64,000 nt of DNA from Candidatus Babeliales bacterium (lineage in GTDB: Bacteria > Babelota > Babeliae > Babelales > JBFXEV01): NCBI GenBank assembly GCA_050179755.1, contig JBFXEV010000001.1, forward strand, positions 969,994 through 1,033,993. Reading direction: 5' to 3'. Each line of letters begins with the position of its first letter. The first letter of the stretch is position 1. Position numbers and translations under genes: made by a program. The notes beneath the pieces were generated by a model. The model was not told where the DNA came from. It saw only the letters and a program-made list of their open reading frames with translations, and did not search any database. Shown here one piece after another: positions 58,940 through 61,610 of this stretch.

Positions 58940-59293
58940 TTACTGCACAATTTCTAATATTAAAAGATTATTTAATTGGAATAAATAAAACCATATTTTA
59001 TTATAAAGTTGTTGTCGTTCGCTGTAAGAATTATCTTGCTTTTGTGTAGCTTCTGCAATGAGAGCCTGAACTCTTTCATAGTGGTTTTCATATTGAGTAT
59101 GCATTAGACTGGCAAGCTCTAAAACATATGTATTGTCTATGATGATATTTTGGCTCAAAAGCACAATTGCAATGGTTGAGCAAAATTCACTGTCAATAAA
59201 TTTATGTTCAAGTCCATATCTTAGCAATTCCAGAATATCAATCTTTTTTAATTCAATAATTTTTTGAATAATTTTTTTATTTTGTTCTAACAT
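58940..59293 (-). CDS. Putative immunity protein (DUF2247-like, possibly truncated)
   Basis: YGLEHKFID...VLELA...KIWFYL resembles DUF2247 from memory; lies downstream of the toxin. Confidence 0.5.
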   Translation of the reverse strand: MLEQNKKIIQKIIELKKIDILELLRYGLEHKFIDSEFCSTIAIVLLSQNIIIDNTYVLELASLMHTQYENHYERVQALIAEATQKQDNSYSERQQLYNKIWFYLFQLNNLLILEIVQ

Positions 59294-59310
59294 AATTATC
59301 TCTTAAATAG

Positions 59311-59850
59311 TTACTTTGAATGTTCAATTAAGTATTTATATTCAGATGGGGTTATGCCCTTCAGAACAAAGGAGCAAATATTTAAATCAATATCCGTAAG
59401 AACACCAAAATTATTATTCATTATACATAAAACTGGCTTTGGCATAGTGGCTATTGAGATTTTCAATGCATCATTATAAACATCCACTTTACAAGCTTCT
59501 GTCATTGTATAATTAAAGCCATCATCAAGGTATGGCCTTCTTATTAATTGATTAATATCTTTAATTTTTAGTGCAATGGTGCTATTATTATAAGGAAGTT
59601 CTGCAAGTGAAATATTGCCTTTTATAAAATTATATTTTTTATTGCAAAGAAGAGTGATGCTAACTAATTCCCCAAATTCTTTTCCAATTTGAAAATACAT
59701 ATAATAATCTTGAGTACGATATTCAACTCGATTATGCGTATTTGAATATATGTCATATTCAAATGTTATATTCATGGGTATATATTCATCAATTAGTCTT
59801 TTTACATTAATGACTTTATTGGTAGCGAATTGAAAAAATAGGTCATTCAT
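59311..59850 (-). CDS. Putative cognate immunity protein
   Basis: Starts 2 nt after the toxin stop; cytoplasmic, aromatic-rich, 179 aa. Confidence 0.6.
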   Translation of the reverse strand: MNDLFFQFATNKVINVKRLIDEYIPMNITFEYDIYSNTHNRVEYRTQDYYMYFQIGKEFGELVSITLLCNKKYNFIKGNISLAELPYNNSTIALKIKDINQLIRRPYLDDGFNYTMTEACKVDVYNDALKISIATMPKPVLCIMNNNFGVLTDIDLNICSFVLKGITPSEYKYLIEHSK

Positions 59851-59852
59851 AA

Positions 59853-61610
59853 TTATTTCTTCTTAAAAGCATGGAAAAGGGCTGGATGTCCATCTTCAAC
59901 TCGCGGATAGCCGAATATTAATTCCCAAGAATTTATAATTATTAATTTCCCGTATTCTATACCCGAATCAGATTTTATTGCTTCCTGAATTGCTTCATAA
60001 AAATCATTAAGTAGTAATTCATGTGACAGTTTATATTCTTTTGCAGGAATATCCCAAGGGGATCTTTGCGGATCCATATATGGCCTGTCATTTTTACGTG
60101 GACTAGTATTTTCCATAATATGTTCGGATGCATTTGGGCTTACCCAGATTAATTGCCCATCAACATTAATTACAAATGATTTCGGTATTAGAGAATGTGG
60201 ATTATAAAGTTCTTGAGTAGGAGTAATTTTTAACCAAATTTTTTCAGGATTTTGATTGCTCAACGCTTGGATTATAGCTATAGTTTCTTCGAGAGTGATT
60301 TCAGGATTCGTTTTTATAGGAAAGCCAATATTAGTTTTATCTGTTTGATGATTTGAGTCTTCTGAATAATTATAGCTACGTTCATCAATTCTTTTGCTAT
60401 GGTTCCTAGAATCATTAACTCGCTTTATATGTGCATTATTAATTTGATTTTTGTCAGATACTTCTAATTGACTTAAATCAAATTTTGTGGGATTTTTGCT
60501 CCAGTTACATGAAGTTATTGGCTCAGCTATAGGTTGTAAGCCCGTGCCACAAGTATAACTTTCTCCGTCATTTATTTCTTGGGTGTAAGTAGGGTTATTT
60601 GCATTAATATCTTCAAATGATGGCATTCTTAAAGTTGTACCGCAAAAGCGCTCTTCGCTTTTTCTAGATTCTTGAAGACATGATGGGATATTGTCGTCAA
60701 GGCCCTGCGGTGCAGGCAATAATCCAGTTCCGCAACCAATAACATTAACGTCGTCAAATTTTGGAATAGGAAATGATCTAGTGTCATGTACGCTAGGTGG
60801 CCTTGGTAATTTCTTATGATCATAATGAGTTAGTTGGCTTTTTGTTGATTGCGGGTCATGAGCAAATACAGCGTTAGAACTATTATTTTCATTACCCAAA
60901 TACCCACGAACACTAGAATCTTTATTTGTTTCAAAGACACTACCTTTGCAATGCCCTGGAGAATTCAAAAGAGGATTAATTGAATCAAAGAGGTTAGAAT
61001 TAGAAATATCTAAATTCATATCTGTTGTGGCATGCGTATTTTTTGCTACAAAGTCATAAACCAAATATGTTGCCGCACCAACAGCAACTGCCTTTAAAAT
61101 CGGCATGACTCCAAGAGTTATTGGTATTACAATCATAAAATTATGAGCAACTATACCGCTGGGTGTGACACAAAATGTATGTGGCGCTTCAAGAGTAAGA
61201 TCATAGATAACAGCGTTTATATGCACTTGATTCACATTTTTGACCACAATCTGTTGCTTATAACAACTTTGTAATATTGTCTCAGGTATTAGATCAGGCG
61301 CGCAGCGCCACGCTTTTTCAATAGGTAAAAAAAATGATTGTTGGGTATCGGTAAGTATATGATTAGCATTTGTTTGAATATGAATAAGAGTAGAAACTTC
61401 GTGACAAGTGATCTCAATTATTGTTCGTAATGCAAACTCATTTGTAGACTCATCAAAGCAATAAACCTCATCATTAATTTGAAGTGCTTCTATTGGAATA
61501 AATCCATGTAACGTTTTGACTAATGTGCCTTCGACAAAACCTGCTTGCAAACATGCAAATTTAAGAAATACTATATAAGCAAATACGAAAGAAATTTTGT
61601 GCGATGACAT
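59853..61610 (-). CDS. Signal peptide + Hint domain + putative C-terminal polymorphic toxin
   Basis: LQA|GFVEGTLV...IPIEAL..NDEV...IYDLTL..HTF...VAHN; hydrophobic segment; compact C-terminal domain. Confidence 0.82.
   Translation of the reverse strand: MSSHKISFVFAYIVFLKFACLQAGFVEGTLVKTLHGFIPIEALQINDEVYCFDESTNEFALRTIIEITCHEVSTLIHIQTNANHILTDTQQSFFLPIEKAWRCAPDLIPETILQSCYKQQIVVKNVNQVHINAVIYDLTLEAPHTFCVTPSGIVAHNFMIVIPITLGVMPILKAVAVGAATYLVYDFVAKNTHATTDMNLDISNSNLFDSINPLLNSPGHCKGSVFETNKDSSVRGYLGNENNSSNAVFAHDPQSTKSQLTHYDHKKLPRPPSVHDTRSFPIPKFDDVNVIGCGTGLLPAPQGLDDNIPSCLQESRKSEERFCGTTLRMPSFEDINANNPTYTQEINDGESYTCGTGLQPIAEPITSCNWSKNPTKFDLSQLEVSDKNQINNAHIKRVNDSRNHSKRIDERSYNYSEDSNHQTDKTNIGFPIKTNPEITLEETIAIIQALSNQNPEKIWLKITPTQELYNPHSLIPKSFVINVDGQLIWVSPNASEHIMENTSPRKNDRPYMDPQRSPWDIPAKEYKLSHELLLNDFYEAIQEAIKSDSGIEYGKLIIINSWELIFGYPRVEDGHPALFHAFKKK

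Follow-up and report, generated by a model that had tools for sequence, protein, structure and literature searches.

The cassette described here occupies positions 58,940 to 61,610 of a 64,000-nucleotide stretch of DNA (the window) from a Candidatus Babeliales bacterium, and comparison of its sequence with those of relatives identifies it as a polymorphic toxin system. Its toxin, A, begins with a signal peptide that runs directly into a Hint domain and ends in a tip homologous to a known tRNase. The protein probably cuts itself to release this tRNA-destroying enzyme. The tip is followed by gene B, which by homology encodes its cognate immunity protein, and by a second small gene, C. Babelota, also called Dependentiae or TM6, are strictly intracellular bacteria that dwell in protists, and the N-terminus of A recurs across the phylum with exchanged tips.

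Layout of the cassette

The three open reading frames (ORFs) are tightly packed on the minus strand, with 2 nt between A and B and 17 nt between B and C; an earlier note, made from the letters of this DNA, had placed them in the same way. The cassette is AT-rich, with a GC content of 35% in A and 27% in B and C, against 40% in the window. The source genome is a single contig of 1.53 Mb and is 96% complete. Positions 58820-61814 are matched without differences by one 2995-nt contig in each of three runs, which are possibly the source samples. A promoter and terminator scan of the cassette stayed at chance level. The features are as follows.

59853-61610, minus strand: toxin A, 585 residues (ORF call).
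61542..61610, minus strand: Sec-type signal peptide, A residues 1-23, ending L-Q-A (sequence and hydropathy; predicted cleavage site).
61140..61541, minus strand: Hint or bacterial intein-like (BIL) domain, A residues 24-157, predicted to cleave at its C-terminus only (PF07591, 2LWY, residue tallies).
61041..61139, minus strand: uncharged, Gly/Ala-rich hydrophobic segment, A residues 158-190 (Kyte–Doolittle hydropathy over 19 residues, KD(19), of 2.2).
60246..61040, minus strand: low-complexity linker, A residues 191-455 (alignment A1; paralogues).
59853..60245, minus strand: tip, A residues ~456-585, a BECR-fold tRNase like CdiA-CT of EC869 (sequence, profile and model matches to 7vmc_B).
59311-59850, minus strand: ORF B, 179 residues, putative cognate immunity protein resembling CdiI of EC869.
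58940-59293, minus strand: ORF C, 117 residues, diverged and resembling Imm38/DUF2247.

A Hint domain at the predicted mature N-terminus

Toxin A is built of a signal peptide, a PT-HINT domain, a hydrophobic segment, a linker and a tip, and its only Pfam matches over 585 residues are to Hint families. PF07591 (PT-HINT) covers residues 30-157 at 29 bits, above the curated cut-off of 27.7, and the solved structure nearest to the family Hint profile is the BIL 2LWY (E 3.5e-26). The profile match and the terminal His-Asn together place A among the type A BIL or PT-HINT domains. The leader was assessed by eye and by hydropathy. It ends A-Q-A in the closest homologue, and a hydrophobic leader is present in the family members with a complete N-terminus.

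In inteins, the N-terminal step uses Cys/Ser1, Thr-B7 and His-B10, while the C-terminal step uses His-F13, His-G6 and Asn-G7 (PMC4031507). In A, the LQA of the leader is followed directly by GFVEGT, such that Gly24 is position 1 of the Hint. Block B reads D88-T-Q-Q91, with Asp in place of Thr-B7 and Gln in place of His-B10, and the Cys/Ser1 and TxxH of the N-terminal acyl shift are replaced by Gly24, Asp88 and Gln91. The C-terminal side is kept, with D137 at F4, H144 at F13 and the terminal H156-N157, and Phe158 comes right after. The earlier note's picture of a signal peptide running into a Hint with a Gly nucleophile, a block-B Gln and intact C-terminal blocks is borne out on each count, as are its hydrophobic helix, linker and compact C-terminal domain, and the Asp at B7 adds to it.

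The generic PF07591 profile matches 80 of the 261 Babelota genomes, and a profile built from 15 family Hints (A2) matches 107 of them, in 70 of 145 genera, with 265 matches. Forty-seven distinct ORFs from 62 loci were inspected, of which the generic profile had supplied about two thirds. Position 1 is Gly in 46/46 scored, B10 is Gln in 42, His in 4 and Asp in 1, and the terminal His-Asn is present in 47/47. A second sample came from a protein search, taking the best 150 hits against 1.84 billion representatives plus earlier hits, which is a query-biased set that carries no taxonomy. Its 95 proteins with a single N-terminal Hint have Gly1 in 93/93 scored, Gln (50), His (44) or Asn (1) at B10, and His-Asn in 94/94. 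Among the remaining Hints of that search, Cys1 occurs in 127/133 scored and His-B10 in 145/156. His-F13 is present in 15/15 rows of A2, and F4 varies across the family. These C-terminal residues are retained in Hints that are only 26-51% identical to that of A. In a FastTree phylogeny all 129 N-terminal Hints lie on one side of a split with support 0.975; also on that side are three Gly1 Hints of internal position and an unrelated intein. Gly1 and Gln-B10 thus appear as a family-wide trait that fits C-terminal-only cleavage, as the earlier note had proposed for A when it held the residues for N-terminal cleavage to be lost and those for C-terminal cleavage kept. In the tandem Gly-Hint proteins P0011 and P0061, the first copy lacks the terminal His-Asn, which is kept only in the copy adjoining the hydrophobic segment or cargo.

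Outside the phylum the form changes. Two other phyla that were sampled have matches in 5/121 and 3/121 genomes at E 1e-14, and the 19 non-Babelota bacterial Hints inspected all start with Cys (18) or Ser (1). Three outgroup Hints sit directly behind a signal or lipoprotein leader yet keep Cys1. As outgroup leaders also adjoin Hints, Babelota are not alone in having an N-terminal Hint; no cleavage-only toxin form with Gly1 turned up in the outgroups searched. In the predatory or myxobacterial loci L036, L037/L101 and L112, a leader on a Cys1 Hint is followed by Cys-rich or very short tails, which are not toxin tips. In one Omnitrophota genome (G264; L100, L103, L105-L110), 10 Cys1 Hints were matched; most of them lie towards the C-terminus of a large protein, and one protein has three Hints. 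Viral contigs gave one locus, with a Cys1 Hint. Plasmids gave 11 records with partial matches below 60% identity, none covering more than 80% of the query, and no RNA holder turned up. A related-locus search with alignment A1 returned one close locus and four distant Hints.

The tip and the two small genes

The tip is, on sequence and modelled structure, a homologue of CdiA-CT, the C-terminal (CT) toxin of E. coli EC869. The single tip sequence matches 7vmc_B at E 6e-9 and a 16-sequence tip profile does so at E 5e-39. An AlphaFold2 (AF2) model of the tip has a pLDDT of 87, and its only strong Foldseek match is again 7vmc_B (E 2.5e-8, TM 0.86 by target); an earlier AF2 model from 3 sequences was unusable, with a pLDDT of 39. 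The entry 7VMC is the complex of elongation factor Tu (EF-Tu), CdiA-CT and CdiI of EC869, in which CdiA-CT has a BECR fold and cuts tRNA acceptor ends, aided by Tu/Ts (PMC9071432). Mapped by alignment with an offset of 21, H497, R570 and H580 of the tip correspond to the EC869 toxicity residues H216, R271 and H281. The comparison with CdiA and Rhs toxin tips that the earlier note had proposed thus leads to EC869. The same note's idea of a membrane-inserting toxin finds no support: by homology the warhead belongs with the BECR-fold tRNases, and at most a role in entry or anchoring is left for the hydrophobic segment. Neither the tip nor B or C has a significant Pfam or NCBIfam match. An atlas match of the tip to EndoU/Ntox35 (0.90, with low recognition) is a lead only.

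Relatives of the tip occur in 10/261 phylum genomes, often on a second carrier that lacks a Hint, and once, in P0159, behind a canonical PT-HINT with TxxH. The second carrier has a signal-like leader and ~450 residues without a Pfam match (L044 was scanned) and ends in the same tRNase tip (L044:40-1878, L051:1075-2943, L056:1-1884, L019:1216-3237). In L019 a central region similar to that of the second carrier lies behind a Gly1 Hint.

In 11/11 loci examined, the tip is followed by a B-like gene of 168-188 residues. At 3/10 loci outside the genus the downstream gene matches the B profile by itself, and the rest were grouped by alignment. The B-family profile (A9) matches 7vmc_C, the cognate CdiI, at E 1.6e-13; the tip and B families match chains B and C of a single PDB entry, which marks B by homology as the cognate immunity protein of the tip. 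Prediction of the tip and B complex gave 0.50, 0.00 and 0.17 in three runs (median 0.17), which is no answer, and was used neither for nor against.

C has no Pfam match, PF10004 included, and its atlas matches are uninformative. Homologues in L060 and L061 are 33-35% identical to it (E 4e-16 and 2e-12), and their domains pass the cut-off of DUF2247. DUF2247 is Imm38, which occurs in mixed immunity loci (PMC3482391). C was found in 4/261 genomes. It follows this tip only within this genus; elsewhere other domains, one of which is partly B-like, are fused in front of it. The DUF2247-like domains of L060:808-1833 and L061:1483-2079 stand behind two different putative immunity domains, and L060 is situated in an array of TPR-like paralogues. 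C is probably an accessory or orphan Imm38-like immunity gene and not the cognate one. The tandem immunity genes of the earlier note are therefore retained for B, which matches the 7VMC partner, while C appears as an Imm38/DUF2247-like passenger.

Exchange of tips and orphan cassettes

This genome encodes three paralogues, A and two others, which share the N-terminus and carry unrelated tips. The two others have the leader, the Gly-Hint, the hydrophobic segment and part of the linker in common with A, and a VHDTRSF/CGTG motif in the linker of A is common to paralogues with other tips (alignment A1). The tip of one is Ntox37 (as in P0028); that of the other is PD-(D/E)xK nuclease-like by eye and is without Pfam or PDB support. 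Behind the paralogue with the nuclease-like tip, at L001 (G000:C1:1053110-1058811), stand two orphan fragments of tips and a set of three related immunity genes, each of ~290 residues. The only same-genus relative, G121, encodes the same protein as A in an array of two full units of toxin, B and C, behind which come B and C as orphans, four small genes that resemble immunity genes, and a tip fragment that is likewise an orphan. At the locus described here, C is the only orphan-type gene, and the orphan cassettes stand at the paralogous loci.

Across the family, 82 proteins were scanned for tips (the 95 with a single N-terminal Hint minus A, close relatives and fragments, 13 in all). Named tips were found in 25, namely 15 Ntox37, 9 Ntox21 and 1 Ntox33, with 23/25 above cut-off, and a colicin E3-like tip is present in L083. 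When 114 tips were clustered, 29 clusters resulted, 17 of them singletons, with some tips cut by contig ends. A downstream ORF begins at -50 to +15 nt in 37 of the 47 inspected ORFs; 5 of the remainder have no ORF called in the locus and 5 have larger gaps. A constant N-terminus with swapped tips, an adjacent immunity gene and orphan tip or immunity cassettes are all present, which agrees with the polymorphic toxin and immunity order that the earlier note had recognised and with the variable C-termini that it expected among relatives. Comparison of the loci shows tips and immunity genes to have been exchanged by recombination. Some members are tipless and consist of a leader, a Gly1 Hint and a Gly/Ala-rich hydrophobic tail alone (L006:525-1313, L007:1165-2013, L015:1267-1953, L012:1336-1956). 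These could be pore-forming peptides or partner subunits.

Proposed route and alternatives

In the reading that we consider probable, the Babelota, as parasites of protists, use A as a minimal polymorphic toxin, mainly against rival bacteria, and it would act in five steps. First, A would be made in the cytoplasm, where B, to judge from its homology, would bind and block the tRNase active site. Second, Sec would export the protein and signal peptidase would leave the Hint at the extreme N-terminus; a Hint in this position has no use for the N-cleavage residues, and this may be why they were lost. Third, the folded Hint would serve as a pro-domain, possibly as cargo of the type II secretion system (T2SS) too, and would cut behind Asn157 through cyclisation of that residue, which low pH may favour, as it does C-cleavage in inteins (PMC4031507). 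Fourth, the freed, Phe-led hydrophobic segment may help the linker and tip across the target membrane. Fifth, the tip would cut tRNA acceptor ends in the manner of its EC869 homologue. The targets would be bacteria of other strains, or those that share a host cell or vacuole with the producer.

The genome encodes two secretins, which agrees with the two gspD copies and the T2SS reported for TM6 (PMC4776705, PMC4378268). At 96% completeness it has no match to TssC (PF05943), the Rhs core (TIGR03696) or VirB4, with positive controls for TssC and Rhs, and this is in keeping with the earlier note's view that A has no Rhs or type VI secretion carrier.

Several observations weigh against this route. 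Some inteins couple C-terminal cleavage to the steps at the N-terminus, and mutation of His-B10 reduces it in those of class 2 (PMC4031507); cleavage by the Hint of A is therefore not guaranteed. No obvious receptor-binding domain is present in A. The genome has no match to CdiB/TpsB (PF03865), and the control genomes were equally silent. B by itself has no PDB match, CdiI included, and it is linked to CdiI by way of a profile in which the distant members share 15-26% identity with B. A net positive charge follows the hydrophobic segment in 50/85 members, which also fits an anchor in the producer with its N-terminus out. In addition, the EC869 Tu contacts Y220, L221, Q235, M237 and Y284 are N, T, H, L and K in the tip, where M to L is the sole conservative change; the contacts are mostly retained in other Babelota tips. 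A ~15-residue insert, found in 5/16 tips, adjoins the altered contacts. With both features, the tip's dependence on EF-Tu or its use of a cofactor may differ. The insert (window 60050-60122), with an RSPWDIP-type motif, and the altered contacts mark a five-member subfamily of EC869-like tips that may use another cofactor or none.

The remodelled Tu-binding face would also suit an effector aimed at the host, in which the tRNase would strike the bacterial-type translation of protist mitochondria, or cytosolic translation, and B would protect the producer before export. Babelota live inside cells and send out numerous effectors through Sec/T2SS, and one of them is surrounded by the host mitochondrion while it replicates (PMC6561590, PMC4378268). 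Yet host-directed toxins of endosymbionts typically lack immunity genes, and immunity-rich loci mark conspecific competition (Zhang 2012, PMC3482391). Orphan immunity arrays make sense only against incoming toxins, and the named tips belong to nuclease-type families of interbacterial systems. A role against the host is unlikely on this evidence.

The hydrophobic segment would be the new N-terminus after the predicted cleavage. The residue after His-Asn is Phe in 51/94 proteins, and an uncharged stretch of ~35-40 residues, rich in Ala, Gly and Ile, follows; KD(19) behind the Hint is at least 1.6 in 64/85 family members versus 12/132 internal Hints. Such a stretch, together with the positive charge behind it and the lack of an evident receptor-binding domain, could also make a stop-transfer anchor in the producer, where the Hint would be periplasmic and the tRNase held by B in the cytoplasm. 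The protein would then be a suicide, defence or addiction module, or would reach other cells only through lysis or membrane vesicles. By a crude insertion scale, the segment of A scores 2.7 and the family median is 1.65, as against 0.14 for polytopic membrane helices of this genome and 3.9 for soluble proteins. The segment is thus marginal, between true membrane helices and soluble sequence, and fits either passage through Sec with later insertion into a target or anchoring in the producer. Passage and later insertion are favoured because exchange between cells is typically marked by swapped tips and orphan immunity genes, and a tethered role appears improbable. A pilin-like reading of the Phe-led hydrophobic N-terminus was dropped, as the conserved Glu5 is absent and cleavage would be at Asn.

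That the Hint does not cleave at all and is only a folded secretion signal or receptor-binding module, like MafB-N, would fit the loss of Cys1, Thr-B7 and His-B10 and the variable F4, but it is very improbable given the invariant His-Asn in both samples and His-F13 in A2, and given that tandem proteins lose His-Asn only from the copy not adjoining cargo.

Relation to known systems

A works like MafB or like a Hint-processed CdiA tip and is a member of neither family. MafB class 1 of Neisseria has a signal peptide, DUF1020, an optional A-type BIL and a variable CT, and is accompanied by mafI and mafB-CT cassettes (PMC4287609). Like A, it combines a Sec signal peptide, a BIL or Hint before a variable tip, an adjacent immunity gene and orphan cassettes, and has no filamentous repeats. 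Unlike MafB, A lacks DUF1020/MAFB-N, with the Hint starting at residue 24, and has no conserved mafA-like gene upstream. Its Hint forms the mature N-terminus, with Gly1 and mostly Gln-B10 across the family, and a conserved hydrophobic segment stands between Hint and tip. Those mafB-CT cassettes whose BILs are short of the first 7 residues resemble A, yet have no signal peptide (PMC4287609).

With CdiA-CT/CdiI of EC869, A and B share a homologous BECR tRNase and immunity protein, including the equivalents of the three toxicity residues. In contrast to contact-dependent inhibition systems, A has no filamentous haemagglutinin-type CdiA, and its tip differs in the Tu contacts and the insert. CdiA proteins that bear a BIL are known (PMC4725963). 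As in type A BILs such as 2LWY, the Hint of A has a terminal His-Asn and no conserved +1 nucleophile. BILs, however, form an N-terminal thioester, whereas the A clade has Gly1 and no N-extein after signal cleavage; for these two reasons its Hints cannot splice.

Zhang 2012 (PMC3482391) describes a category with T2SS/Sec export, a HINT peptidase and lineage-specific N-termini; A has its general plan of a signal peptide, predicted HINT autoprocessing, variable tips and immunity genes. In the toxins of that work the HINT stands just before the toxin and behind a carrier or repeats, whereas in A it is the only folded N-terminal domain. The examined text of that paper does not mention Babelota, and the examined parts of five Babelota-related papers (PMC6561590, PMC4378268, PMC4776705, PMC12172432, PMC12644861) mention neither Hint domains nor polymorphic toxins. 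In the literature searched, with subscription journals outside the search, no account was found of a Hint form like this one, which is N-terminal, carrier-free and cleavage-only. The distinct delivery class of the earlier note was slightly overstated, since Sec/T2SS export with HINT had been listed (Zhang 2012; MafB); the apparent novelty lies in the architecture and in how widely the phylum carries it.

Insertion site and neighbouring genes

The gene upstream of the Hint toxin varies across the 47 loci. Here it is msrAB, and a copy of its 3' end bounds the cassette beyond C.

61734..62825, minus strand: msrAB, with PMSR and SelR domains, an upstream host gene outside the toxin system.
58757..58919, minus strand: distal copy of the 3' end of msrAB, 163 nt long and 87% identical to 61740-61902.

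In the sister genome G121, msrAB directly faces an ankyrin gene with no cassette between. Given this empty site and the distal copy, the cassette looks inserted, with duplication of the msrB tail or allele replacement. The distal copy has residues in common with the G121 allele that are absent from the intact gene, and may be the original tail. No recombinase adjoins the cassette among the ORFs of the window. The contigs gave no convincing joint that skips the cassette (one was listed, with a 24-nt side, and the left flank is uncovered, from which nothing follows). A functional link of the toxin to msrAB was rejected, as the toxin array of G121 is situated elsewhere. At 57796-58744 of the window lie a 263-residue ankyrin-like ORF and an overlapping 75-residue ORF, also missing at this site in G121, which are perhaps one frameshifted gene.

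Meaning for the phylum

Zhang 2012 (PMC3482391) treats toxin–immunity conflict among intracellular bacteria as an exception, and one 2025 survey reported its Babelota genomes to be devoid of toxin-antitoxin systems. The findings raise the question of how a toxin of 300-600 residues enters a target when it has no filament, syringe or receptor domain. Protein engineers build inteins in which Cys1 is inactivated and only C-cleavage is left, and the A-type Hint is a natural counterpart of these.

A wider reading is possible and is put forward tentatively. Here, the family would be a phylum-wide, carrier-free class in which a signal-capped, cleavage-only Hint acts as a pro-domain and hides a fusion-peptide-like hydrophobic segment until a cue such as vacuolar acid triggers Asn cyclisation; once exposed, the segment would carry exchangeable nucleases into rival intracellular bacteria or the host mitochondrion. 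If true, this would amount to a new way of entering cells and would be evidence of large-scale interbacterial warfare among strictly intracellular protist parasites.

A Hint of this family is present in about 40% of Babelota genomes, and most of the copies inspected come with exchanged tips and neighbouring genes. Such a pattern suggests that there is competition within protist hosts or between them, in a phylum for which functional data are almost lacking.

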